A stretch of 64,000 nt of DNA from Escherichia phage kaset. The DNA lies in the sequence record PV245935.1; one strand, given 5' to 3'. The notes under the pieces were generated by a model. The model saw only the letters and a list, made by a program, of their open reading frames with translations. It did no database searches and was not told where the DNA came from. This document shows, piece after piece, positions 1 to 59,748 of the stretch; the first letter of the stretch is position 1, and every line of letters begins with the position of its first letter. A program made the position numbers and the translations under genes.

Positions 1-596
1 AAGGTCTGGAGGGTATTGCGGATTACTACCTGAAAGAAGGTCAGGATGTGGATTTTGACCCTCAAAAAGATTCACGGTCGGTGCAACCGTCTACCCTTCC
101 AAGCGTCAAAGGTAATGTCGTTAACTTACGACACAACGTTGGAAAGATGGACGCAGCATCGTTACCTAAGATGAAGTTGCACGGGCTGATTCTTGGGATT
201 GAGAATCCTCGCAACAGCATCCGTAGAGGGAACAGCCTTGACGGTGAATGGGCAGTCAAGATGCCGCATCACTACGGATTCATCAAGGGCACTAAGGGCG
301 CGGACGGCGATGAAGTCGACTGCTTTGTTGGTCCAAATATGAAGTCGCCGAAGGTCTTTATCGTTAACCAGAACGATAATTACTCTGGCGAGTTTGATGA
401 ACACAAGTGTATGCTTGGATTCGATTCAGCAGAAGAAGCGAAAGAAGCTTATCAAGCATCATTTGGTAACGGTTGGAATGGATTCGACTCAATCCACGAA
501 TTAGATGTGAACTCATTCAAGGAGTGGTTGAAGGGTGATTGCTCTCAAGCATACGGAGCACTCAATAATCCTACTAATTCACCGAAGCAAGGTTGA
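1..596 (+). CDS. Partial CDS (5' end outside window); C-terminal region carries an inorganic-pyrophosphatase-like signature
   Basis: Frame is open from window start into track ORF 48..596; motif YGFIKGT...DGDEVDC fits the family I pyrophosphatase pattern D-[SGDN]-D-[PE]-[LIVMF]-D as I recall it. Confidence 0.5.
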   Translation, partial: GLEGIADYYLKEGQDVDFDPQKDSRSVQPSTLPSVKGNVVNLRHNVGKMDAASLPKMKLHGLILGIENPRNSIRRGNSLDGEWAVKMPHHYGFIKGTKGADGDEVDCFVGPNMKSPKVFIVNQNDNYSGEFDEHKCMLGFDSAEEAKEAYQASFGNGWNGFDSIHELDVNSFKEWLKGDCSQAYGALNNPTNSPKQG

Positions 597-597
597 T

Positions 598-1449
598 ATG
601 GCTTTTAAAGCTTCGAAAAAACGTGAGCGCCGCTCACCCGATAGAATCGGGCGCGGCAGTCCGATAATCCCATCAAACGCTATTGCGATGGCCTACCGTC
701 GTGAGATGAAAGGTCTTTGCTATGCGATGATTGATGACTATCAGGAAGGCATTTCAGAATGGCTTGACAAGAAGCAGGTGCAGAAGTTTTTTGCGCAAGA
801 CTCTGCTGATTCGACATTCCAGACCCTTATGAAACGGCTGCAGCTGAAATGGGCAAAGGCGTTTGCACGTGTTGGGTCGAAGATTGCTGCTGATTTTGTC
901 AAATCGGTCGAAAAGGGTGCCACTTCTGCTACATTCGCCAGCCTTAAGTCCGCAGGCATAGAAGCGCCAAAGGCCACGTACAACAAATTCGTTGAGAACA
1001 CTCTTAGAACAAGCGAGACATTTAACACGACTCTAGTGACCAAGGTCGGCGAGGATATTCACAACAGAGTGTACGAAGCAGTAATGCTTTCACTGACTTC
1101 GCCCGACCCAGCCAAACAAGGCACGTCAGGCATTCAGGCGGCGCTGCGAAACGTCAAACACTTTTCTGCAAAGAGAGTCGATTTAATCGCTAAAGATCAA
1201 ACAAGTAAATTGTATTGCGTTCTAAGCGATGAAAGAATGCGCCAGAATGGAGTTGAAGAATTTGAGTGGGCGCACTCAGGAGCAGGAAAGGAGCCGCGAA
1301 TCTCTCATGAACACGTCGACGGAATGAGATTCAAACTTGATGACAAGCGTCTATGGGAAGTTGGCGGAGAATTGAAGTTCAAAAAGGGCGACATCGGTCC
1401 TCCTGGATGGGCGATACACTGCAAGTGCAGGAAAATACCAATCATTTGA
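598..1449 (+). CDS. Head morphogenesis protein, Mu F / SPP1 gp7-like
   Basis: ATG at 598 overlaps upstream stop (TGATATG); C-terminal R-x-S-H-x-H-x-DG motif (PRISHEHVDGMRF) typical of MuF-like minor head proteins. Confidence 0.7.
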   Translation: MAFKASKKRERRSPDRIGRGSPIIPSNAIAMAYRREMKGLCYAMIDDYQEGISEWLDKKQVQKFFAQDSADSTFQTLMKRLQLKWAKAFARVGSKIAADFVKSVEKGATSATFASLKSAGIEAPKATYNKFVENTLRTSETFNTTLVTKVGEDIHNRVYEAVMLSLTSPDPAKQGTSGIQAALRNVKHFSAKRVDLIAKDQTSKLYCVLSDERMRQNGVEEFEWAHSGAGKEPRISHEHVDGMRFKLDDKRLWEVGGELKFKKGDIGPPGWAIHCKCRKIPII

Positions 1450-1456
1450 GGTCATT

Positions 1457-2377
1457 ATGACGATACCAATCAGCACGTTTCCTCTATCTGGACAAACGCC
1501 AGTATTACCTGCTGTATATGCGAACGGTTTGGCGATTGTTTCAGAATTTACATCCGATAAAAATTTGATTGTTCCATTGAGTCCGCCATTGGCATCTGGA
1601 TACAATTCAGTCGGACAATTCTTTATGATCGGTAATGATGGAGATTCTACCAGCAAACCGAATCTGACCCTTTCAGTCCCCAAAATGAACATAACAGACG
1701 TGCAGACTGGTTTGACTGCATCTACAATCACCATCGCTTTTGGAGAAGCAGTGATTATAGGCATGGAGTCTGGAGGGTCCAAGAATGCTGTCGCCGTTAA
1801 AGTAGTCAAATCCAGCGGCAACCAATACACATTACCAGCAGCAACGGCTTCTGTTCTTGGCGGAGTCAAAATAGGGAGTGGCATAAGCGTTGCAGGTGAC
1901 GGTACAATTAGCGTGACTCAATACTCATTACCGATTGCATCAGCATCAACCTTGGGTGGCATAAAGGTAGGTACGACACTATCAATTGATGGTTCTGGAG
2001 TTCTCAATGCTGCTGCAAGCACTGTGCAGAACGCAAGCAACAGCGTAAGCAATCCTCCGACAACTCTGGTGAATCTGGCAACCTTAAACCTGCCTGCAGG
2101 GAAATGGCTTGTGACAGCAAGTCAGTTGACTGTTGCGACAGAAGGAGTTCAAGCGAATACCGGAATTACAGTCAAACTGTCAACAAGTAATTCAGATATT
2201 ACGGATGATGCATTTACGATGTCAGCTGGCATTCGGGCTGCAGGTCGTTTCGGCGGCAATATTCCAACAAAAATAATTACTCTTGCCGCGCCTGGCAACG
2301 TGTATCTAAACTATCAATGCACAGACGCATTGACATCTACCGTTTACGGACAGATCACCGCAATTAAGTTGAACTAA
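1457..2377 (+). CDS. Structural protein with internal Gly/Ser-rich repeats (decoration or fiber-like)
   Basis: RBS GAGG before ATG; repeated segments LGGVKIGSGISVAGDGTISV / LGGIKVGTTLSIDGSGVL. Confidence 0.6.
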   Translation: MTIPISTFPLSGQTPVLPAVYANGLAIVSEFTSDKNLIVPLSPPLASGYNSVGQFFMIGNDGDSTSKPNLTLSVPKMNITDVQTGLTASTITIAFGEAVIIGMESGGSKNAVAVKVVKSSGNQYTLPAATASVLGGVKIGSGISVAGDGTISVTQYSLPIASASTLGGIKVGTTLSIDGSGVLNAAASTVQNASNSVSNPPTTLVNLATLNLPAGKWLVTASQLTVATEGVQANTGITVKLSTSNSDITDDAFTMSAGIRAAGRFGGNIPTKIITLAAPGNVYLNYQCTDALTSTVYGQITAIKLN

Positions 2378-2387
2378 AGAGGAAGTT

Positions 2388-2525
2388 ATGCAAAAGATTA
2401 TTCAGTCACGTTACGTTAAAGTGCGAAATATTAATTGCAACTCTTTGCTTTCTTGGAAATGGGCTGTTTACGACTCGATGCTGATTGGCGTTTTAGTTGC
2501 TGGAGTGCTTTTTAATATTCACTGA
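2388..2525 (+). CDS. Small hydrophobic protein (45 aa), hypothetical
   Basis: Strong RBS AAGAGGAAG 4-11 nt before ATG; C-terminal hydrophobic stretch MLIGVLVAGVLF; below the ORF-track size cutoff. Confidence 0.4.
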   Translation: MQKIIQSRYVKVRNINCNSLLSWKWAVYDSMLIGVLVAGVLFNIH

Positions 2526-2539
2526 ATCGCCTGGCAGTG

Positions 2540-2835
2540 GATTGCCGCAGGATTTTACGCGTATAATGACGTATCATCCGTATCAAGTAAGTAGTTGTTT
2601 TCAAAAGAATCTTACGGATGATACGGATGATACGCGTTGCCGCGATACTTTATAGGAATTCAAATAAATTAATTTAAAATTATATATCTAATTTAATTTT
2701 ATTTTTTTATAAACTCTTATATATGAAAAGTATCCGTATCATCCGTATCATCCGTAGCACACCAGTGATAGCGCGGCTTATACACCGATACGGATAAAAA
2801 TACGCCTCATTTTATCCGTATCATCCGTATCACAC
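2540..2835. repeat. Iteron-like module A: 9-mer ATCCGTATC arrays in direct and inverted orientation around an AT-rich core
   Basis: Direct copies at 2576-2584, 2732-2756, 2814-2831; inverted TACGGATGA x2 at 2613-2630; AT-rich 2646-2730; homologous to 54601-54890. Confidence 0.7.
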
Positions 2836-2889
2836 TAATTAAGGCGCGGCTATATCGGTTGTTATACATATTCAAACCATAATTATTGT

Positions 2890-2918
2890 TTGCCTAAGTT
2901 TTTTTCATTAGATATAAT
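2890..2918 (+). promoter_or_regulatory. Sigma70-like promoter candidate upstream of the scaffold/capsid genes
   Basis: -35 TTGCCT (2890-2895), 17 bp spacer, -10 TATAAT (2913-2918); ATG at 2942. Confidence 0.4.
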
Positions 2919-2941
2919 ACACAATACTTATTTGAGGGTGG

Positions 2942-4363
2942 ATGCGAATGCAAACGGCACGCGAAATTGACAAAAATGGATTCTTGACGATTGTGGGTTG
3001 TCCCATTTCGTCATTTGGCATTTTTGATTATTCTGCAGGTCAGGTTGGACTTGATGGTGATCCGAATCGCATCGTAAAAGTTTATCGCCCAGAGTCAGCG
3101 GTGAAAGACCCCGAAGCGATAGATTCATTCAAAAATATCCCTTTCATCGACAATCACGAAATGCTTTCTGGATTCGAAGGTGATGAGGATAACACGGCAC
3201 CCGAAGAGTATGGCGTTGATGGAGTTCTAACTGGCAATGTTTATTATGACAAGCCATGGATGCGCGGCGACCTTAAAGTTTTTAGCCGTCGTCTGAAGAA
3301 AGCCATCGATTCTGGAAAGGTTGACTTGTCTTTGGGCTATGACTGTGAATTCATCATACAGTCTGGAGAGTTTGACGGGCAGCCGTATGAAGTGGTACAG
3401 ACAACTCTTCGCGGCAACCACATTGCTCTCGTGGACGTTGGTCGAGTACCAGGTGCACGGGTGCTGGATGGTCGTTGCTTTGACCATCTTTGTTTGACGA
3501 CTGTAACACCATCCAACGAGGATTTAGATATGCCAAAACCGTTAAAAGGTAAAGCGCGTGATAATGCTGTTGAACAGCTGAAATCACTGATCCCTGCGCT
3601 CGAACAATTTCTGAATGAAGAGAGCACCGAAGCTGCTCATCAGGATGAAGTTGAAGTGAAAGCAGAAGAGAAGGATTCAACCGAAGAACGTGAAGAAGTG
3701 ATGGTTGATCCAGAAGTCAAAGCAGAAGCTGAAGAGACTCCAGAAGGTGAAGAGAAGTTTGAAGTTGAAACTGAATCTCACGCTGGTGGCGAGCTTCCGC
3801 AACTGATCAGCCAAATCGAAGCACTTATTGCAAAACTGAAAGGTGGCGCGGTAGGTGATGAAGAAGAAGTTGAAGCCGAAGTCAAAGACGAAGAAGAAGT
3901 TGAAGTCAAGGCTGAAGATGTATCACCTTGCGACAAAGCTGAAGATGTGGTTAGCGGCCTGCAAAACAGCAACGTAAAGGGGGCTTCGGTCGAAAAAGAT
4001 GACAAACCGACAAAAGCGGCGAAAGCGTCGCCAGGTCCAGCAAAAGGGGAACACTCAATGGCATCTGATTCAGCAGTTGCTGCTTTCTACGCTGATTCTG
4101 CTCGTAAGAATAGCCTCTACCAGCGCCTGTCTAAAGTTGTTGGTGCCTTTGATCATGCAACTATGGACTCCAAGTCCGTAGCGAAATATGGCGCTAAAAA
4201 GTTAGGCTTGAAGTGCGTTGATGGCGCTGAGTTTGACGTTGTGGATAACTATCTGCGCGGCGTTGAACACGGTCAAAAACAGCGTGTAGTCGCAAAACAA
4301 AAGGCCGCTGCGGATTCTGCAGCAACTGACGAAGCATTTGAAGCTTGGTTGAAAGGGGAATAA
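2942..4363 (+). CDS. Putative scaffolding / prohead assembly protein with acidic repeat region
   Basis: Lies immediately upstream of the capsid candidate; long E/V/K-rich acidic repeats (EEVEAEVKDEEEVEVKAED); RBS GAGGG. Confidence 0.55.
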   Translation: MRMQTAREIDKNGFLTIVGCPISSFGIFDYSAGQVGLDGDPNRIVKVYRPESAVKDPEAIDSFKNIPFIDNHEMLSGFEGDEDNTAPEEYGVDGVLTGNVYYDKPWMRGDLKVFSRRLKKAIDSGKVDLSLGYDCEFIIQSGEFDGQPYEVVQTTLRGNHIALVDVGRVPGARVLDGRCFDHLCLTTVTPSNEDLDMPKPLKGKARDNAVEQLKSLIPALEQFLNEESTEAAHQDEVEVKAEEKDSTEEREEVMVDPEVKAEAEETPEGEEKFEVETESHAGGELPQLISQIEALIAKLKGGAVGDEEEVEAEVKDEEEVEVKAEDVSPCDKAEDVVSGLQNSNVKGASVEKDDKPTKAAKASPGPAKGEHSMASDSAVAAFYADSARKNSLYQRLSKVVGAFDHATMDSKSVAKYGAKKLGLKCVDGAEFDVVDNYLRGVEHGQKQRVVAKQKAAADSAATDEAFEAWLKGE

Positions 4364-22059: not shown

Positions 22060-23847
22060 ATGCCAACACTTATTAACAGACCTTTCGCGCAAAGCGGTGA
22101 TGTATCCGTGGTGCCGGATGCAAGCCCAAGCGGTTATGTGAACTTCCAGCGCGGCTACACTCCTGACTATGCGCTTGCGCTGGAGGCCGGAAACGTCGCC
22201 GCGAAAGCTGTTGAGCGCGAATCGATGAACTGGTTGCTGAATTTGATTACAGACAACCTTATGTTTATTCAAGATCATGGCGCTCAACAATATTTCTCTT
22301 CTGACTTGAAGCCGGATGGATACCCGAAAAACGCCATTGTTGTCAGCAACTCTGGAACGCCTTCAGCACCTGAGTGGCGCATCTTTCAAAGTGTGGTTGA
22401 CGGCAACACAAGCGCAGTACCAGCTAACGGAGAAACGGAATCTTGGCAGGAATTAACACTGCCCAGCGAAGCGCGAAAATACATTCCTATGCCTGCTGGC
22501 GGCGATGCGCAAAACCCGTATTTTGTTCGCGGATTGATTTCAAGCGTTGTCGACTTTGACAATATTACGACTTCCACAACTATTGTCATCCAATCCGATG
22601 CCGTTGCCGCTCTGTGCTCTAATATTCCGAATGCTGTTGGCGCGACGAAGGTTGCAGGTCGCCTTCAGGTTTGCGCTTGGCAGGTCGATGCGCAAACGTT
22701 TGCGCTGCAACAATACACGTCAATGAACGGATATGTTTTTACCCGCTCTTATACGTCTGGTGCTTGGAGTGCTTGGATTCAAAATGCCACCGTTCAAGAT
22801 GTGCAAATTGGAACGCCGAATCTTGCATCAGGTAAAGGCGCGCAAGATATAATCCTCACCGTTCCAGCAGGGTATTCATGGCCTCCGTCAGCAGGTAGTC
22901 GTTTGACAATCGTCAATGATGTAACGACTACCGGACCTGTCACCGTGACCATTGGTGTAAACAAAGTTGCCGTTCTTGGATTCGACGGCGGCGAGCTGCC
23001 AGCTGGCGCTATCGTAGGCTTGTTGCCATTCACCATAATTTATGACGGCACTGTTTGGCGTCTCCTTCAGGCGTTTGGCGCGGCGCAAATCGGCGTTGAT
23101 GCTACTGAGCCGCAACAGTTTGTTACAAAGCGCCAACTCGATGCTTTGGCTGCGAAATTGATCACTATGGGCGACGTATTCGAAGTCGGTGAGACTCGAT
23201 TCCTCACCAACGGAACAGACCCGAATACTAAACTGGGCGCTTACGGCCAGGTATGGACACGACTTCCTGATAACATGGTCATCAGAACATCTGGCACGGC
23301 GCGAAACGGTCTTGCCACTGGCGGCGCGGACTCTGTTACTCTCACCGCTGCAATGCTTCCTCTCCACAATCACAGCGTGAACATTACCACGCGACAAAGT
23401 GGTCCATGGTCTAATACCACTGGAGATGCTGGAAATCACAACCACACAGGTGATACAAGTCAAAACGGTGCTCACGTGCATGGAATGGATACGGCAGGCA
23501 ACCATCACCATGACAGCAGCTGGGGTGAAGCCAATACTAGCGATGCGCGGTACGGCGTTTATGATGGGACACACAACAACTTCGGAAGTCGCAAAGGCGG
23601 CGACTGGGATAACTACAAATACAACACTTCGACTAACGGCAACCACGTCCATAATATTCAATCTTCTGGATCACACACCCATGGATTGAATATAAATTAC
23701 GCTGGCAATCACAGCCACAGTTATACCCTTCCCGCTCACACTCACGATGTGGTCGGTAACACTGGCAACGCAGGGCAGTCGGTGCCAACGGCTGTTGCGA
23801 CTTTGCCGCGATACGTTGTCTTGAATGGCTGGTACAGAAGCGCATAA
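22060..23847 (+). CDS. Tail fiber protein with His-rich C-terminal tip
   Basis: ATG 22060 after GAGGA RBS; C-terminal region has seven HxH motifs (NHNH, HVH, HHH, HVH, HTH, HSH, HTH) as in metal-binding fiber tips. Confidence 0.65.
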   Translation: MPTLINRPFAQSGDVSVVPDASPSGYVNFQRGYTPDYALALEAGNVAAKAVERESMNWLLNLITDNLMFIQDHGAQQYFSSDLKPDGYPKNAIVVSNSGTPSAPEWRIFQSVVDGNTSAVPANGETESWQELTLPSEARKYIPMPAGGDAQNPYFVRGLISSVVDFDNITTSTTIVIQSDAVAALCSNIPNAVGATKVAGRLQVCAWQVDAQTFALQQYTSMNGYVFTRSYTSGAWSAWIQNATVQDVQIGTPNLASGKGAQDIILTVPAGYSWPPSAGSRLTIVNDVTTTGPVTVTIGVNKVAVLGFDGGELPAGAIVGLLPFTIIYDGTVWRLLQAFGAAQIGVDATEPQQFVTKRQLDALAAKLITMGDVFEVGETRFLTNGTDPNTKLGAYGQVWTRLPDNMVIRTSGTARNGLATGGADSVTLTAAMLPLHNHSVNITTRQSGPWSNTTGDAGNHNHTGDTSQNGAHVHGMDTAGNHHHDSSWGEANTSDARYGVYDGTHNNFGSRKGGDWDNYKYNTSTNGNHVHNIQSSGSHTHGLNINYAGNHSHSYTLPAHTHDVVGNTGNAGQSVPTAVATLPRYVVLNGWYRSA

Positions 23848-28530: not shown

Positions 28531-29088
28531 TTACTTTTTGCTTTTAGGCAAGGTTATTTTAGCTTCTTTATACTCAAAGACGCTAATATCTTCACTGACT
28601 GGATTACCCGCTTCCAGCTGTTCTTTTACGAATGACTTCAGTGTAGCAGAATGAACGCCTTGTTTCAACGTGGCTTCAATACCGTCTTCACGCAGCGCGG
28701 CAACAATCTCTTGCGCTTGCTCGATTTCTTCGCGACCGAACTCAGCCGTGACGCTGGACTTGATCAAGCCGCCGTAACCGTTGTTGACAAGCCAATCGAA
28801 TACTTTCAATTCATTTTCTTTCTTAATTGAAGCATTGACTTTTGACTCGACCTTGATTTTGGTCTTGTCTTCAAGCTTGATTTCGGACACGCCAAGCTCA
28901 TCCATAACGCCAGGAAGCAGAACAGTTTTGATTTCACTGATGCGCTGCTTTTGCATATCAGCTTCATCTTCAAGCTCTGTCAAAGCTTCTTGGCGTTCTG
29001 CCAATTCCGATACTAAGCGCGCAAGGCGCTCTTGGATGCTCTCAGGAGCGACCTGCGGCAAATCATCTTCCCAATTAATATTGCTCAT
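28531..29088 (-). CDS. Hypothetical protein
   Basis: ATG with RBS AAGAAGGT; start codon lies in first copy of a 52-bp tandem repeat. Confidence 0.5.
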   Translation of the reverse strand: MSNINWEDDLPQVAPESIQERLARLVSELAERQEALTELEDEADMQKQRISEIKTVLLPGVMDELGVSEIKLEDKTKIKVESKVNASIKKENELKVFDWLVNNGYGGLIKSSVTAEFGREEIEQAQEIVAALREDGIEATLKQGVHSATLKSFVKEQLEAGNPVSEDISVFEYKEAKITLPKSKK

Positions 29089-29184
29089 ATTTTACCTTCT
29101 TGCATTAGCCCTTCAACACGGGTCATTTGATATTGCTCATATTTTACCTTCTTGCATTAGCCCTTCAACACGGGTCATTTGATA
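29081..29184. repeat. Perfect 52-bp tandem duplication (2 copies) spanning a gene junction
   Basis: TTGCTCATATTTTACCTTCTTGCATTAGCCCTTCAACACGGGTCATTTGATA at 29081-29132 and 29133-29184. Confidence 0.85.
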
Positions 29185-44867: not shown

Positions 44868-46538
44868 ATGTCAATTGAACATGACAATCTTCCAGAGGAT
44901 ACAGGTGATGAATTTGGTGCAATCTTTGACGAAATTCAAGATGCTGGTGTTTCAGAAGAAATGCAAGCGGCAGAGCAGCAAGGCACCAGAGCTAAAATAA
45001 GCCTTCAGCACAAGGCTGTTGAGAAAGATGCAGAGCGCATGGAATGCTACGGTGAAGAAGACTTGGTTGAAAGAGCACGTTTGCTCGCCTCACTTCAGGT
45101 AATCAAGTTCCCTCACTACAAACCGACGAAAGATGATTTTGTTCTTCAGGCGGACCGGACGAGTGACATGAACCGTTATGCGGTTTTCGACGCGTTGTTT
45201 GATAAGGGAAGCGGCATCGTCCCATTCCCTCACAAAGATACTTTTCGTGGACGCTTAGTCGACCATCGCGGCGAAACATTCACCGACCGGACATTGGAAG
45301 TCACAGAGATAGTTGCCGCTGTCGACGCAGCAGGTCTGTCCAACCCAAACTCACGTCAGGTCGCTCAATCCTATAAGGAATGGGCCATGCGTTATCAGCG
45401 CGACGACCTGATGGACTTCTTCTACAAGAAGCTGCCTGAATGGGACGGTACTGCGCGCATTGAAAAATACCTTATCGAGCTATTCCGACCGTTCGATACA
45501 GAGTTAAACCGACAAATCGGTGTGTATTTTTGGCTATCGCTCTATAACCGCCTGACCAATCCTGGCTGTCAAGCGCCAATCTCCATTGCGCTCATCGGCG
45601 GCCAGAACGCAGGGAAGAGTTATTTTAGTAAGCTGCTTTGCGAAGCTATTATGAACGACCGCCACGCAACACCGATTCCGTTGAACTTGGCCGCGCAAAA
45701 CTTCAACCCGTTCTTGCGAGCTATTACGGGTCGCTCAATTATCGCGAACGTTGGCGAGATGACAGGCTTTAAAAAGGCTGACATCGAAAACATGAAAGCA
45801 TTCCTGACTAAGACGGAAGATGACCTGGACTTCAAATTTGAAGATACGCAGGTTAAACCACGCCAGTGGATTGCTATCATGGACGGCAACGAATACGCAG
45901 GCATGCAGCGTGACGATACGGGCAACCGTCGTGTGTATCCTATCTTTGTTGGCCAACTCGCCGACAAGGACGGGCAACCGAACTGGTCTAAAGACTTCCA
46001 AGCTGACCTTTCCACTTTGAAAGAAGACGTTTGGCAGCTGATGGCTGAGTGCGCTGCGTGGATGGAGAAGCACGGCGAAGCAGGTTACAACGCCTTTGTT
46101 GGTGAAACATCTCGTATGCTTACTGAGTTCAGTAAGAACGAAATGGAACGTGCGCGCGGCGTTATCCGTGATGAGATGGTCGACAACGACCTTGTTGAAG
46201 TCATCATCACCGCGCCTTATGACCGACATCACAGCGGACGCTGGCACATCACCAGTGGGGCAATCGCTATGGGATTCAGAGCTAAGTGCGGCAAGTCGCC
46301 TTTCTCACGTACCCTTGCGCCGCACATGTCGAAGCTTGGATTTGAGCCTGCAACCTATCGCAACCAGCGTGGCTACTTTACGCCGCTGATTAAGAATGAA
46401 GCAGGGGAATACATTTCTGACTTGATGACCATCTTAGCGTATCTTATTCGCGACGAGTCTGACCCTGAAGATATTGAATTCTTGAAGAAGGTTATTGAAC
46501 GCAAACGTTCTTTAGGAAGAGATAAGGATGAATTCTGA
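44868..46538 (+). CDS. P-loop NTPase, primase-associated (VirE/D5-like helicase candidate)
   Basis: Walker A IGGQNAGKS; 556 aa; downstream of PrimPol gene. Confidence 0.6.
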   Translation: MSIEHDNLPEDTGDEFGAIFDEIQDAGVSEEMQAAEQQGTRAKISLQHKAVEKDAERMECYGEEDLVERARLLASLQVIKFPHYKPTKDDFVLQADRTSDMNRYAVFDALFDKGSGIVPFPHKDTFRGRLVDHRGETFTDRTLEVTEIVAAVDAAGLSNPNSRQVAQSYKEWAMRYQRDDLMDFFYKKLPEWDGTARIEKYLIELFRPFDTELNRQIGVYFWLSLYNRLTNPGCQAPISIALIGGQNAGKSYFSKLLCEAIMNDRHATPIPLNLAAQNFNPFLRAITGRSIIANVGEMTGFKKADIENMKAFLTKTEDDLDFKFEDTQVKPRQWIAIMDGNEYAGMQRDDTGNRRVYPIFVGQLADKDGQPNWSKDFQADLSTLKEDVWQLMAECAAWMEKHGEAGYNAFVGETSRMLTEFSKNEMERARGVIRDEMVDNDLVEVIITAPYDRHHSGRWHITSGAIAMGFRAKCGKSPFSRTLAPHMSKLGFEPATYRNQRGYFTPLIKNEAGEYISDLMTILAYLIRDESDPEDIEFLKKVIERKRSLGRDKDEF

Positions 46539-49195: not shown

Positions 49196-49200
49196 ATATC

Positions 49201-49249
49201 AAAAAGGTGAGCTAAATGCTTGCCTTTTCTTTTATCAATACTTATACTC
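49201..49249 (+). promoter_or_regulatory. Terminator-promoter cassette copy 1
   Basis: Hairpin AAAAAGGTGAGC-TAAAT-GCTTGCCTTTT with U-tract; -35 TTGCCT (49220-49225) overlapping 3' arm; -10 TATACT (49244-49249). Confidence 0.5.
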
Positions 49250-50459: not shown

Positions 50460-50462
50460 TTC

Positions 50463-50509
50463 AAAAAGGTGAGCTAAATGCTTGCCTTTTTATTTGCCTG
50501 TATTATACT
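50463..50509 (+). promoter_or_regulatory. Terminator-promoter cassette copy 2
   Basis: Same hairpin AAAAAGGTGAGCTAAATGCTTGCCTTTTT; TTGCCT then -10 TATACT (50504-50509). Confidence 0.5.
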
Positions 50510-54303: not shown

Positions 54304-54328
54304 GAGGGCCAATCGGCCCTTTTTGTTT
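54304..54328 (+). terminator. Rho-independent terminator ending the + strand early gene block
   Basis: AGGGCCAATCGGCCCT hairpin followed by TTTTGTTTG. Confidence 0.6.
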
Positions 54329-54600
54329 GCCTGTTGTTTGTGAGTTTTTATTATCGGATAAAGCGATTGATTTGTGTAAATCTATTAGAGGATGGTGGGC
54401 CGTGAGGATTGTGACGTGAATTTTGTGTCTTGAATATGTGTTCGAATTTGGAAGAATATTGTACTGTGGTGCTGTGGGATTGGAGAGGGAATCACTAGGT
54501 TTTGGGGCGTGTACCGTGGTGTGTGGGCCTGTAGGCTGCGCCGTGTCTGGGATTGCCGCTTGAAATTAAAAAGGAGATATAGTTAGCTGGCTAACCTTAC

Positions 54601-54890
54601 GTATAGAATTTAAGCGTATAATGACGTAAGATTTGGACCTATCCGTAGTTCACTCCACACACTTCTATGGTGCGCCGCGACTGGGTTCAATGGTACATCT
54701 TACGGATGATACGGATGATACGCGTCGCCGCTATACTTTATACAACTTTGAAAAAAACAATTAACTCCATTTTGAATTAATTTAAATTAATTTTTTTCTA
54801 CATCCTCATACTTATACTAAAATTATATTTATACGTATTATCCGTAAGATATAAATAAAAACAAAGACTTGCGGCAATACGGATGATACG
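54601..54890. repeat. Iteron-like module B, homologous to 2540-2835
   Basis: Shared GCGTATAATGACGTA; inverted TACGGATGA x2 at 54689-54706; CGCTATACTTTATA; AT-rich core 54721-54850; further copies at 54826-54834 and 54864-54887. Confidence 0.7.
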
Positions 54891-55047
54891 CCATGATACG
54901 CTTCAGCCAGCCAGCAGCGGCTAAGTCATTGATTTGCATAACAAGCGGCGAAAGGGATGGATTTCTTTTATACGTATCAAACAGTACACCACGCACCACG
55001 GTCCATTATTCATTCAGCACTATGATTTATGTACTTTTACAGCCAAT

Positions 55048-55094
55048 TTGAACATCAATCTGCACTTGAATATAATGTTCATTCATTGTATAAT
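55048..55094 (+). promoter_or_regulatory. Tandem sigma70-like promoter candidates upstream of 55129 gene
   Basis: TTGAAC-17 bp-TATAAT (55071-55076) and TGTATAAT (55086-55093). Confidence 0.4.
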
Positions 55095-55104
55095 TCACAC
55101 TATT

Positions 55105-56584
55105 AATTTGCACTATGGGATTTGCACTATGAGTCAAGATTATGTAGCAATGCCTGAAGACTTTGAAGACCCGCGATTTGCAGAGCATAATCAGGCATTA
55201 TTCGATGAGTTCATTGACCTTGTTATTCAGGGCCATGACATGCGCGCAGCTTTTGCACTAGTATTTGGCATGGAGGTTGCGACCGATAACTACACTGGCC
55301 AGCGAATCCTGTGCACGCAACGCAATCCGTACTACAAGATGCGCTACAAAAAGCGTATGGAAGAGATGCCATTGAAGGAATTGTGGAGCGTAAAGAGTTC
55401 CATCCACAATTTAGTGAAGCTTGTGCGTGATCCAGAAGTCGCGGCATCAGCCAAGCTTAATGCCATTCGTGAACTGAATATCATCTACGGCATCACGATG
55501 ATTGATGAAAACGGCAATAGTAAAATGGGCCGTTCCATGGACGATTTCTACAAGGATTTTGGAGAGGCAGCCAAAGAGGGTGAGCAATTCTCCCGCCACT
55601 AGCCAATTTGCACTATAAAACGGCCCTAGAACACATTTTCTCCACTTCTAGGGCCATCGGTAATACGACGGTGAATGCTGCAACCATAAACGCGTTAGAA
55701 AGTGTATTATTATAAGTCATCTTTTAGTCACTTTACGTAACAATTTACGACCTTCCGCCGTCCAGTCGAACGACTCCACCAGCAGATTTGCACTATAACC
55801 TAAGACGATGCGCCCTTTCTCGTTATCGACCCGCCAACAAGTCTCGAATAGCATTCGATTTGCACTATTAACTATCACCGCAACGCGCGTTGGGTAAGCG
55901 CAATTTGCACTATGGTCGTAAAGGGATAAGGTGCGACCACTTCCGATGGACAACGTAGCGATGAGAATGAGTGTGTTCATAAGCCACCAATTTGCACTAT
56001 GAAAAGCGACCCCGAAGGGCCGCCATTCGATTAGATGATCTGGAAGGTGTAGGATTTGTTGCCGAACTCAAAGTTCAAGCGCCCAGCTTCCTTAAGCTTC
56101 ATACGGAAGCGAATGTGCTTGCTATCCGGTAAGCCCAGCGCGGCGAACGCTACGCGGACCGATTTGAACTCGCCTACACCCTCGACCATAACGCCGTTGC
56201 GCGTAAGACGCTTTTGCGCTACTTCCTTGTTGTCCCAACTTTTTGCAATACCTTCGCTATTCGAACGGCGATGGGAAGGAGTTCCATTTTGCACTACGCA
56301 ATTTGCACTATCGTTTAGGCCGCTCTTAACGAAGGCTTCATACTCTTCGTCGGTCATCGCGTCGAGTTCTTCCTGGGTCGGCTCGGCCTTTTTAACGACC
56401 GCACGCGCCTTATGCGTTTTTACATCGCTGGACACTTCCTCGCGCGGCTTCGCGTCGGGGATGGGCGATTCGTTGGACGGCTCATCGAGCGCGTTTAAGG
56501 ACTCGATTAACGCGATTACGCGAGTCTCGGCGGTACGGCGGTCCGCGAACTTTTTAATCGGCTTCGAACCGGAATTTGCATTAT
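55105..56584 (+). repeat. Dispersed same-strand array of ATTTGCACTAT motifs
   Basis: Copies at 55105, 55120, 55605, 55786, 55858, 55902, 55989, 56300; variants at 56286 and 56573; related AATTTGCAGTACACT at 58462 and 58559. Confidence 0.7.
55129..55602 (+). CDS. Hypothetical protein (candidate regulator; ATTTGCACTAT motifs overlap its start)
   Basis: ATG 55129; track N-terminal extension runs through promoter region and is rejected. Confidence 0.5.
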   Translation: MSQDYVAMPEDFEDPRFAEHNQALFDEFIDLVIQGHDMRAAFALVFGMEVATDNYTGQRILCTQRNPYYKMRYKKRMEEMPLKELWSVKSSIHNLVKLVRDPEVAASAKLNAIRELNIIYGITMIDENGNSKMGRSMDDFYKDFGEAAKEGEQFSRH

Positions 56585-56657
56585 AAAATGCAACGAGGTC
56601 GGCGGTCTTAGTTGCGATAACGTCGCCGCTAGTCGAGAAGCGATTTAAGCTAACCAT
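56031..56657 (-). CDS. Hypothetical protein in CpG-rich block
   Basis: 208 aa ORF; CG-rich codon usage distinct from rest of window. Confidence 0.5.
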   Translation of the reverse strand: MVSLNRFSTSGDVIATKTADLVAFYNANSGSKPIKKFADRRTAETRVIALIESLNALDEPSNESPIPDAKPREEVSSDVKTHKARAVVKKAEPTQEELDAMTDEEYEAFVKSGLNDSANCVVQNGTPSHRRSNSEGIAKSWDNKEVAQKRLTRNGVMVEGVGEFKSVRVAFAALGLPDSKHIRFRMKLKEAGRLNFEFGNKSYTFQII

Positions 56658-56737
56658 AATAAACTCCTATTTGTTAGGGCGCTAGGCGCGAAAGAATTTT
56701 ATTAAAGCGCCGCGCACGACGCTCTAAAAATCCTCTC

Positions 56738-57022
56738 TTACGCTTCGACGAGGGAGAAGGTCTCAAATTCTTCTTCGCCCATAACGAGTAAAATATTACC
56801 GATTTCGACCGCTTCGAAGAAGTATCCGTTAACGTTTACTTCGAAGGCTTCGCGGTCCGATTCCGGTAACGCCGCGTAAAGTTTAAAAGCTTCGGCGACC
56901 GTTACCCCACCCGCTTCGATAGTTTGGTCTACGTTCGCGGCGTAGACTTCGGATAAATTTTGTTTTACGCCGTAGTTCTCGACGATAGCGTTACGGATAG
57001 AAGAAACGTTAAGAATAGCCAT
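56738..57022 (-). CDS. Small protein, member of paralog family (with 57655..57945)
   Basis: Shared pattern SEVYAANVDQTIE / ESVYLSNVDAIIE and VNGYF..EIG / INGFV..EIG. Confidence 0.55.
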   Translation of the reverse strand: MAILNVSSIRNAIVENYGVKQNLSEVYAANVDQTIEAGGVTVAEAFKLYAALPESDREAFEVNVNGYFFEAVEIGNILLVMGEEEFETFSLVEA

Positions 57023-57245
57023 TTTAAACTCCTAGTTGGGAGAGGCGTTAACGACCTATTCGTTAACTCATCCCGTCCCGATATGAGTACATTATAATAT
57101 AGTGTAGAAAAAAGTAAAGCACTTTTTCGATAAAAATGCGATAAATTATTTTATCTTTTTTCTTTACTTCTTCGTACACTCGCGTATACTTGTTTATATC
57201 GAGACGGGCGATGGCCTTTCTTCTACTATCATCGGGAGCTTTATT

Positions 57246-57548
57246 ATGACTACTTTAATCTCTTCCATCCTTACTTACGACGAAGACCGTTTAACCGTTC
57301 GCTCTCTTATCGCCGCCGTTAACGCGGAACTAGAATCTAGCGCCATTAAGGTCCGCGCTTTCGTCTTCGCTAGTCTTTCCTTCGACGAAATTAAATACGC
57401 CGAACGTAGCGCCATCCGCTTCGCGAAGACCGACGACGAAGCCGTTACCCTTATCGAGACGGTTACGCCGCGCGGCGAAGCGTTAATTATCGTCGAGTAT
57501 ATCGACGTAGAAGGCGATAAATCTTATAAATATTTTATCGCAGAATAA
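57246..57548 (+). CDS. Small protein, possible distant paralog; flanked by 16-bp inverted repeats
   Basis: Preceded by promoter-like module; inverted repeats GTAAAGCACTTTTTCG (57114-57129) and CGAAAAAGTGCTTTAC (57549-57564). Confidence 0.5.
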   Translation: MTTLISSILTYDEDRLTVRSLIAAVNAELESSAIKVRAFVFASLSFDEIKYAERSAIRFAKTDDEAVTLIETVTPRGEALIIVEYIDVEGDKSYKYFIAE

Positions 57549-57654
57549 CGAAAAAGTGCTTTACTTCTTCGTACACTAAGACTATACTTATTTATATCGA
57601 GAGGGGAGAGGAAGCGAATAGGTCGCTACCCTCCCGACTAACTAGGAGAATATT

Positions 57655-57945
57655 ATGATCACTTTATCCGCTATCCGTTCCGCTCGCGTCGAAACTTCCG
57701 AAAACTCTAACATATTTGGCGAAACCTTAGAGAGCGTTTATCTCTCTAACGTCGACGCGATTATCGAGTCTATTTATGAGCCGATCAACTTCCTCGACCT
57801 TTACAAGTATCGCGACGAGGACATCGTATCCTGCCGCGTAACGATTAACGGCTTCGTCTATACGATTACCGAAATCGGCGGCGAATATATCGCTGTACCG
57901 CAACTCGGCGGAGAAGTGACTTATTTTAAAATCGTCTCCTTATAA
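57655..57945 (+). CDS. Small protein, member of paralog family (with 56738..57022)
   Basis: RBS AGGAGA; preceded by duplicated promoter-like module. Confidence 0.55.
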   Translation: MITLSAIRSARVETSENSNIFGETLESVYLSNVDAIIESIYEPINFLDLYKYRDEDIVSCRVTINGFVYTITEIGGEYIAVPQLGGEVTYFKIVSL

Positions 57946-57963
57946 TACCCTTCCGTTACTAAT

Positions 57964-57990
57964 AGGCCGCGCTTAGTCGCGGCTTTTCTT
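57964..57990 (+). terminator. Rho-independent terminator candidate
   Basis: GGCCGCG-CTTAGT-CGCGGC hairpin followed by TTTTCTTCG. Confidence 0.5.
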
Positions 57991-58642
57991 CGTCCCTATC
58001 TCGATGCGCTTCTCCGCGAAAACTCCTTTATTCTTCCCTTCGTCGTCTCATAATCTTCTTCGAGATGCTCCTTAGTTCGCATAACGGGTATTACGTTAAA
58101 TGGAGAACATCGCGTAAGTCCTTGTTTTATATAGACACCTATATCGGACCGTTAAGGCGGGTCGCGTAAGTCGTTGTTTTATAAAGGCGCAAAACTTTCC
58201 CTTCGTTCCGAACTAAAACGAGAAATATGCGGACCCTTCGCCCGAAAATAGTACGCATACGAAATTACCGACATCTAAAATAATCCCCGCCTATATTATC
58301 CTACACGCAATCATTAGCCTTCGAATCATTATGCTTCATATTATTATGCATCGAATCATTCGCTTTCGAATTGTAACGCTGGAAACTGTAACGGCGATTG
58401 ATTATTGCGTTCGTGTGGTTTTTAGGGCATGGGTCTTTTGGTGCGTTTTGGTACTTGATGAAATTTGCAGTACACTAATCAAAATATGACACATTTGGTC
58501 CACTAACTTTTCAAAGAAAAAGTCCTAGACAGTACCGTACTATTTTGTGCCCACAGTAAATTTGCAGTACACTCCTGCGCGGCAGGCAAAATAAAGGGCC
58601 GCCACAGCGACCCACGATTCACGGTTAAATCAGCAACACCCA

Positions 58643-59352: not shown

Positions 59353-59748
59353 TCAATATTTTAATAAGAAAGCACCCAACCAACTTTCCTCAACCTCGCG
59401 CCCAGTAGCCACACGGTCGGTCTTTGCTATGGGTCTGGATTCGCCGCAGGGCAATCCGTCTTGCAATTGTGTACTATTGCCAATTCTCACCATAACCTTT
59501 CCATCAGGGTCGATATAAGCACGGCAACCCATGATTTCGAGTCGTTGTAGACACTGGCGAATCGTTTTCAGCCTTTCACCGGACCGGATAGAGCGCAGTC
59601 GCGACCTCTGACCGTTCTTGTTCACTGTACGCTTAACAACCGGAATCTCATTGGTGCGTTGCGCTTTCGGTCGGTAGTATGCTTCTTCGCCAGGAGTCGC
59701 ACCTGGCGTCAATTCGCGCTTGAGCGCCTTTTCAATATCGATGATCAT
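59353..59748 (-). CDS. Hypothetical basic protein
   Basis: Track ORF, Arg/Lys-rich. Confidence 0.45.
   Translation of the reverse strand: MIIDIEKALKRELTPGATPGEEAYYRPKAQRTNEIPVVKRTVNKNGQRSRLRSIRSGERLKTIRQCLQRLEIMGCRAYIDPDGKVMVRIGNSTQLQDGLPCGESRPIAKTDRVATGREVEESWLGAFLLKY

Follow-up and report, generated by a model that had tools for sequence, protein, structure and literature searches.

The pac site of phage P1, like that of SPP1, has repeats around its cleavage region and lies near the small terminase gene. In lambda, cosB lies next to cosN and holds the R sites, repeats in mixed orientation to which the small terminase binds, together with an IHF site. On the side of replication, SPP1 carries oriL and oriR, two distant regions of iterons plus AT-rich sequence that are bound by G38P, and P4 has the two-site iteron origin ori/crr. 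In PMC9611059, the DNA contacts of the SPP1 small terminase (TerS) are described as flanking the cut, and PMC3012670 and PMC9611059 give the proposal that double rings of T4 gp16 synapse two pac DNAs. How TerS chooses viral DNA is nevertheless still poorly understood, and for the group of phages considered here no recognition site is known.

The DNA analysed here, called the window throughout, is a stretch of 64,000 nucleotides from Escherichia phage kaset (PV245935.1), a Wifcevirus that in the region of interest is 96-97% identical to Escherichia phages ECML-117, FEC19 and WFH. It holds two related modules, A and B. Our best explanation of the pair as a whole, to which we give a probability of roughly 0.45, is that packaging would initiate at B, that TerS would act on both modules and that A would be a second loading site.

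Two modules built from the same sites

Modules A (~2539-2860) and B (~54551-54950) are colinear paralogs in which the clusters of sites follow one another in matching order and orientation. An earlier note had placed B at 54601-54890; related sites extend beyond these limits, from ~54551 to ~54950. The same note had proposed that the two elements are homologous, quoting shared blocks, further TATCCGTA-type copies and an AT-rich core, and all of these were found in both modules. The longest direct repeat between separate regions of the window pairs 2609-2674 with 54697-54762 (85% identity over 66 nt), and the block ATCTTACGGATGATACGGATGATACGCGT(T/C)GCCGC(G/T)ATACTTTATA at 2609-2654 and 54697-54742 is identical at 44 of its 46 positions (blastn against the whole window, E=3e-16). 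Two further blocks recur in the same way, GCGTATAATGACGTA at 2559-2573 in A and 54614-54628 in B, and AATTAATTTAAA at 2667-2678 and 54775-54786. When A (2539-2800) and B (54551-54905) were aligned globally, 77% of the ungapped columns were identical and the score stood ~14 SD above shuffles, which is more than chance. The proposed homology is further borne out by the iteron GATGATACG, an exact 9-mer found nine times in the 64 kb where ~0.5 copies are expected, six of them in A, three in B and none in the window outside the two modules; judged from phage Mansfield, the ~4 kb of genome beyond the window hold no more copies. Tandem iterons are spaced 9-10 bp apart and their orientation flips across a core that is 90% A+T in A and 84% in B, compared with 54% for the window. 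Pentamers keep a strict mirror orientation, GCCGC to the left of the core and GCGGC to the right. By a score for such mirrored pentamers B tops the window, while A is tied with other loci and not exceptional.

The left arm of module A (2539-2655) carries GCCGC at 2544 and 2639, GCGTATAATGACGTATCATCCGTATC at 2559-2584 and the double iteron TACGGATGATACGGATGATACG at 2613-2634. Its core (2656-2730) has a dyad axis at ~2684, and the right arm (2731-2860) holds an inverted triple iteron (2732-2758), forming a perfect 22-nt inverted repeat of 2613-2634, followed by GCGGC at 2773 and 2846, ATACGGAT at 2788-2795 and an inverted double iteron at 2814-2832. The left arm of module B (54551-54735) is likewise made up of iterons and pentamers together with GCGTATAATGACGTA, here a degenerate site: GCCGC occurs at 54555, 54674 and 54727, TATCCGTA at 54640-54647 and the same double iteron TACGGATGATACGGATGATACG at 54701-54722. 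The core of B (54736-54832), which contains the left genome end, leads into a right arm (54833-54950) with an inverted degenerate iteron, CGTATTATC, at 54834-54842, GCGGC at 54871, 54917 and 54945, and ATACGGATGATACGCCATGATACGC at 54877-54901. Folding of module A yields a long imperfect palindrome (z=-6.3); that of B is weaker (z=-3.3). A search of the whole window with Rfam covariance models gave no match at gathering thresholds.

The earlier placement of A within the late head-gene region and of B behind a block of genes holds. Module A lies between a 45-aa ORF (2388-2525, + strand; annotated in Mansfield, WFC and Bas101), whose 3' end contains a terminator-like hairpin (2487-2509), and the gene for the head maturation protease (2942-4363, + strand; phrog_3778, 1e-171; Pfam DUF2213), the first gene 3' of the module. 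Module B follows the last gene of a rightward block, between the Rho-independent terminator that closes the block (54305-54320, + strand; GGGCC-AATC-GGCCC then a T run), annotated at the equivalent position in phage WFH, and a gene for a 157-aa protein (55129-55602). Small ORFs are annotated across B in Bas101 and Mansfield, and these gene calls may be spurious.

Both modules are flanked by a terminator on one side and, on the other, by a sequence that matches the consensus of a sigma-70-like promoter: TTGCCT-17-TATAAT (2890-2918, + strand) before the protease gene, and TTGAAT-17-TATAAT (55066-55094, + strand) before the gene that follows B, identified below as that of TerS. Each module thus lies 130-300 nt 5' of a good promoter match into a late gene, and the two could be read as operator or enhancer arrays through which a phage transcription factor would control the TerS and protease/capsid promoters; promoters that require phage factors are described for Pbunavirus 14-1 (PMC10914365). 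We consider this very unlikely. The earlier note had named promoters of a common temporal class as one possible role, and this does not hold for promoters of the sigma-70 type, as the shared blocks contain no -35/-10 pair at a spacing of 16-18 nt. A single weak site (9/12) is found inside 2540-2860 and none inside 54551-54950, and the TATAAT within GCGTATAATGACGTA has no -35 partner. At least 7-9 sites over ~300 bp around an AT-rich core would be atypical for an operator, other late operons are without iterons, and transcriptional control would leave unexplained why a genome end falls in the core of B in three genera.

The genome end within module B

The GenBank records of Mansfield, WFH, WFC and Ro157lw, which come from different laboratories, all begin at the base equivalent to 54769. 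They open with ATTTT(G/A)AA, WFH matching the window at 40 of 40 positions, and the corresponding cut lies between 54768 and 54769, TAACTCC|ATTTT, inside the AT-rich core of B. This junction is invariant in five Wifceviruses, although the left arm of B cannot be aligned from one subgroup to another. The Mansfield record carries a repeat_region at 1-3673 described as 'direct terminal repeat predicted by PhageTerm', the genome announcement of that phage states that the genome was opened at the PhageTerm repeat boundary, and Korf et al. reported terminal repeats of ~3.7 kb in WFC and WFH. By the Mansfield annotation and the record ends, the direct terminal repeat found at both ends of the virion DNA corresponds to 54769-58438 (~3.67 kb), and its right end falls at 58438 whether taken from the record ends of WFH and Ro157lw or from Mansfield position 3673. 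It holds the gene for TerS, the 157-aa protein encoded at 55129-55602 (+ strand), which matches PDB 7uxe 'Small terminase' (phmmer E=9e-33) and phrog_4783, and whose equivalent is annotated in Mansfield as the terminase small subunit. The gene starts 360 nt to the right of the cut.

Because the records start within the core, at 54769, and the TerS gene follows directly, we read B as the packaging-initiation and terminus site. Transferred from relatives that are 96-97% identical in this region, the end itself can be placed with near certainty: B almost surely contains the terminus or pac cut, and the large terminase (TerL) would be the enzyme that cuts in its core. The earlier note had assigned the two modules a shared regulatory or replication role. 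A common DNA-binding factor is indeed very probable, but the genome end and packaging site in B had been missed. The position of the terminus is already present in GenBank annotations, and it is the iteron architecture and the conserved twin that appear to be newly described; a literature search found no paper describing modules A and B.

The symmetry axis of B lies within ~±10 nt of the cut in the window phage. We considered whether the cut always falls on a dyad axis and dropped this idea, as dyad symmetry around the cut is not evident in two phages of other genera with mapped ends, MTx and JG024. At the other end of the repeat the WFC record runs to ~58519, that is 81 nt past 58438, and CCACTAACTTTTCAAAGAAA just before this end resembles the left cut site TTAACTCCATTTTGAA. 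Iterons are absent from the right boundary of the terminal repeat.

The region from the terminator to B includes a G+T-rich tract (54380-54560, + strand; G 0.38, T 0.33), and MTx has a similar tract to the left of its terminus. Aeromonas phage Gekk3-15 has a tandem pair of GTGGCTGGTGGA, making two Chi octamers, in the matching region 5' of TerS (22342-22365 of the compared locus). Exact Chi sites occur in the window at 3782 (+), 44253 (-) and 55776 (-), the last of them 1 kb inside the left end and in what we take to be the orientation that would stop RecBCD entering at that end. A possible role of such G+T-rich or Chi tracts is to protect the linear genome at its ends.

Several other repeats were noted. 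Inside the terminal repeat there is a family of repeats, 18-23 nt long, that contain TTTGCACTAT (55110, 55596, 55776, 55987, 56291 and 56571; window 55110-56590), and its members may be early promoters or operators. Also within the terminal repeat, a 27-nt repeat (57185-57211 and 57583-57609, 89%) precedes two small rightward ORFs, and two copies of a 25-nt repeat, TCGCGTAAGTC.TTGTTTTATA.AG, lie near the right end (58110-58186). Elsewhere in the window there is a 52-nt tandem duplication at 29072-29175 (96%) and a 35-nt terminator-like repeat at 49199-49233 and 50461-50495 (94%).

Conservation of the pair across genera

The A/B pairing is also present in Myosmarvirus MTx, Kylevirus PA1, Pbunavirus R12/JG024 and Salmonella phage PCSE1, and in MTx, PA1, R12, JG024 and PCSE1 TerS adjoins the B-type module as it does in the window. 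Comparison with related phages, suggested in the earlier note, thus shows the pair to be conserved in at least five genera. An unbiased approach gave the same picture. With the 1 kb 5' of TerS as blastn query against its own locus of 23 kb, or against all 64 kb of the window in the case of the Wifcevirus, all significant non-self matches fell in the gap before the protease gene (window, Pantoea phage PA1, R12, PCSE1). Serratia phage MTx, whose TerS is 35% identical to that of the window, has a 3,566-bp PhageTerm repeat whose left end carries TerS, and its head protease is preceded by a gap of 356 nt. Its terminus junction and its pre-protease gap are 78% identical over ~290 nt, covering both sides of the end, and its short motif, ACTTTTCG, differs from that of the window. 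Each genus has its own 8-mer confined to the modules, with counts inside and outside of 10/1 for ATGATACG, 5/0 for ACTTTTCG, 10/0 for AACGGTTA, 5/0 for CAAGTTAC and 10/0 for ATATAACG; in all five genera the 8-mers are spaced 9-10 bp apart in tandem and flip orientation across the core.

In JG024, position 59,376 is where 36 of 161 long reads begin, and the pac restriction fragment that was observed agrees with it (PMC10913387). This position falls between two blocks common to the B-type and A-type modules of that phage, and a mapped end therefore lies between A/B-shared blocks in three genera, represented by the window phage, MTx and JG024. The pentamers recur as well: counts to the left and right of the core are 3+3 in B, 2+2 in A, 3+4 in the B-type module of MTx and 2+4 in JG024, and the first right-hand GCGGC stands at +102, +103 and +111 from the mapped end in the three genera. 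A longer element common to the genera, GCGGCAA(Y), was tried as a recognition sequence and dropped, most of its copies being outside the modules; the mirrored pentamers are what is left of it, as a modest observation. Around the A-type core, long inverted arms are seen in four genera, matching at 22/22 positions in the window and 21/21 in MTx, over 22 nt at 95% in R12 and over 23 nt at 87% in PA1. In the Pbunaviruses the B-type module, pac position included, is overlapped by the ORF of a 193-aa 'phage protein' (R12 gp40, 1434-2015 of the compared locus; JG024 gp77, 906-1487), which may be a spurious call.

These data also bear on whether A might be a real, minor packaging start at which a second pac cut is made at low frequency. 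The 10-30 nt that follow the cut on its right are common to A in each of the three genera whose ends are mapped, namely AATTAATTTAAA in the window, ATAGT..TACACTA in MTx and CTAATAGAA..ATCTAT..GGAACGTTA in Pbunavirus, and the GenBank record of Pbunavirus E215 was opened inside an A-type core, ~20 nt from the dyad axis. We regard a minor start at A as very improbable nonetheless. Records opened at A number 1 of ~297 in Pbunavirus and 0 of 28 in Wifcevirus, and a chance opening is plausible, ~0.1-0.2 being expected if records were opened at random. The long reads of JG024 show a single pile-up of starts, at B (PMC10913387), A is without the invariant TAACTCC heptamer of the cut site, and starts at A would yield non-viable lengths in a phage with fixed repeat ends. 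The E215 opening (NC_042080.1, bases 1 and 66789) corresponds to 21041|21042 of the R12 locus, right before (C/T)AATAGAA, a sequence that in the B-type module lies 14 nt to the right of the JG024 pac position; it may have arisen by chance, or it may indicate that the A-type core occasionally serves as an end.

Among the Wifceviruses the right arm of B is 94-100% conserved, and the left arm is unalignable in WFC-type relatives yet keeps its iteron copies there. The right arm of A is nearly invariant; its core and right arm together are 98% identical to Bas101, with ~5 variable columns among four phages, and the flanking genes are at 93-95%. Exactly one 9-nt unit is lost in Bas101. In WFC-type phages the similarity of A to B is reduced to the iteron arrays (16-24 nt), and the 46-nt identity described above is therefore lineage-specific; gene conversion may be its source. 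An A-type module is present in essentially all of the ~297 Pbunavirus records. It is absent from Aeromonas phage Gekk3-15 and Xanthomonas phage FoX7, whose TerS proteins belong to the same family; FoX7 lacks a gap in front of the protease. Taken together, we conclude firmly that A and B are homologs maintained by selection.

A scan of IMG/VR for the double iteron returned only Wifcevirus contigs and single chance matches. One metagenomic Wifcevirus contig of 68,520 bp (IMGVR_UViG_3300045988_152943) has both ends at iteron arrays, and these look most simply like assembly breaks at the A/B repeat.

A shared binding protein and the known systems

Because the short repeats co-vary within genomes across genera, a single sequence-specific phage protein very probably binds both modules. 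Which protein this would be is a more tentative matter, and at somewhat short of even odds we take it to be TerS. This identification is favoured over a replication initiator because in three genera the end occupies the centre of B and the TerS gene is always adjacent, because repeats that flank the cut are the SPP1 pattern, and because a spacing of 9-10 bp would, by our own reasoning, suit the successive subunits of a ring. In PMC9611059, the solved TerS of phage E217, a structural homolog, is given as a decamer and as showing no appreciable DNA binding in vitro. A 208-aa protein encoded in the terminal repeat was also considered as the binder and set aside; it is conserved in genera with and without module A and does not discriminate between them.

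In the mechanism that we propose, B would be a ~400-bp element in which GATGATACG arrays (units 9-10 bp apart) and GCCGC/GCGGC pentamers surround the AT-rich core. The terminase would cut this core at TAACTCC|ATTTT, creating the left genome end, which is also the left boundary of the 3.67-kb repeat, and packaging would then proceed rightwards through the adjacent TerS gene. Module A would be recognised by the same iteron-binding protein, taken to be TerS, and would serve as a second terminase-loading site at which ends do not normally form. It may act as a synapsis partner of B, in the way put forward for the pair of pac-like sites in T4; alternatively, it may couple terminase occupancy to head-gene expression.

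Some observations, the in vitro result for E217 among them, sit less easily with TerS as the binder. Module A has more perfect iterons than B (6 vs 3) and stronger inverted arms, and such a surplus is odd if the main job of the binder lies at B, where the dyad symmetry is weak. A second strong terminase site also looks risky for a phage with fixed ends. For Mansfield, MTx and JG024 no terminus at A is reported, and any packaging role of A would therefore be indirect; nor is A a general requirement of this terminase, since FoX7 and Gekk3-15 do without an A-type copy.

The same features lend themselves to a reading of A and B as two replication origins, in which the iterons would bind an initiator that opens the AT-rich core. 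Cutting by the terminase, specific to B, would on this reading be a separate function superimposed on the origin structure or making use of it. One candidate for such an alternative binder is a primase homolog encoded at 44868-46538 (+ strand; tblastn, 47% identical to the primase of MTx, 46% to that of R12), whose gene lies 8 kb 5' of B in the window and whose ortholog stands directly 5' of B in MTx, R12, JG024 and Gekk3-15. Short repeats set roughly a helical turn apart, in inverted arrays on the two sides of a core with 84-90% A+T, are the classical layout of an origin, and two-site iteron origins are known from SPP1 and P4. Module A, which has no mapped end, has the most and the best iterons and long inverted arms in four genera, and the terminator and promoter on either side would shield both modules from read-through transcription. 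The suggestion of two origins in the earlier note fits the iteron plus AT-rich architecture, but finds no echo in GC skew, which tracks gene orientation. Cumulative skew turns only where gene orientation turns, at ~24, 42 and 55 kb, and has no inflection at A, although skew is a weak test in phages. The window has its primase gene 8 kb from B and a long way from A, and in a literature search no origin was found to be mapped in any phage of the group. A pair of origins would moreover need coincidence, or some added coupling, to account for an end that is central between A/B-shared blocks in three genera. We hold two origins, the main rival reading, to be rather unlikely.

Returning to TerS as the binder, the proposal can be taken further in two ways, to which jointly we give little credence, though more than to promoter control or a minor start at A. 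PB1-like myoviruses may package from two sites, with TerS rings on the A and B arrays synapsing modules 16-20 kb apart before B is cut, a step that would be obligatory in Wifcevirus, Pbunavirus, Myosmarvirus and Kylevirus. Alternatively, A may be a head-gene switch, such that its occupancy by terminase would couple head-protein synthesis to packaging. If either is true, these phages would offer a natural, sequence-defined case of the long-debated idea of pac synapsis by twin rings.

Candidate recognition sequences are now explicit, as genus-specific iterons at 9-10 bp spacing around mapped ends in three genera, with a second, better-conserved copy before the head genes. At least five genera have such a copy, among them the Pbunaviruses employed in phage therapy. 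The identity of the iteron binder, the need for two sites and a role of the internal copy as an origin can all be tested with short DNA fragments and simple phage mutants. On the practical side, any rebuilding or engineering of these genomes has to leave the modules intact, and the A/B repeat can break assemblies.

Of the known systems, pac of SPP1 (pacL-pacC-pacR) and of P1 resemble B in having repeated elements around a central cleavage region beside the TerS gene. They differ in that the cut in the window phage is the fixed end of a 3.67-kb direct repeat and does not begin a headful series, even though headful packaging is found in its Pbunavirus relatives, and in that the unit here is a 9-bp iteron in inverted arrays with a full second copy 16 kb away. 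Lambda cosB shares the placing of several repeats beside a cut and the TerS gene, with TerS binding putative in the window phage; here, however, the ends are a terminal repeat and not cohesive, the cut has repeats to its left and to its right, and a second copy lies elsewhere in the genome. The pac-like sites in T4 genes 16 and 19 are alike in being two homologous sites per genome, one of them at TerS, and PMC3012670 and PMC9611059 give the proposal that TerS double rings join them. In T4 the homology is short and within genes and there are no fixed ends, whereas the modules of the window phage are large, noncoding and conserved across genera; TerS rings and recombination belong to the T4 proposal, and the likeness drawn here to twin-ring synapsis lies in the pair of homologous sites. 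With SPP1 oriL/oriR and P4 ori/crr the window phage has in common two distant noncoding elements that share iterons and an AT-rich segment, one in an early or replication region and the other in a late region. Unlike in those origins, one of the two elements of the window phage contains the genome end and abuts the gene for TerS.
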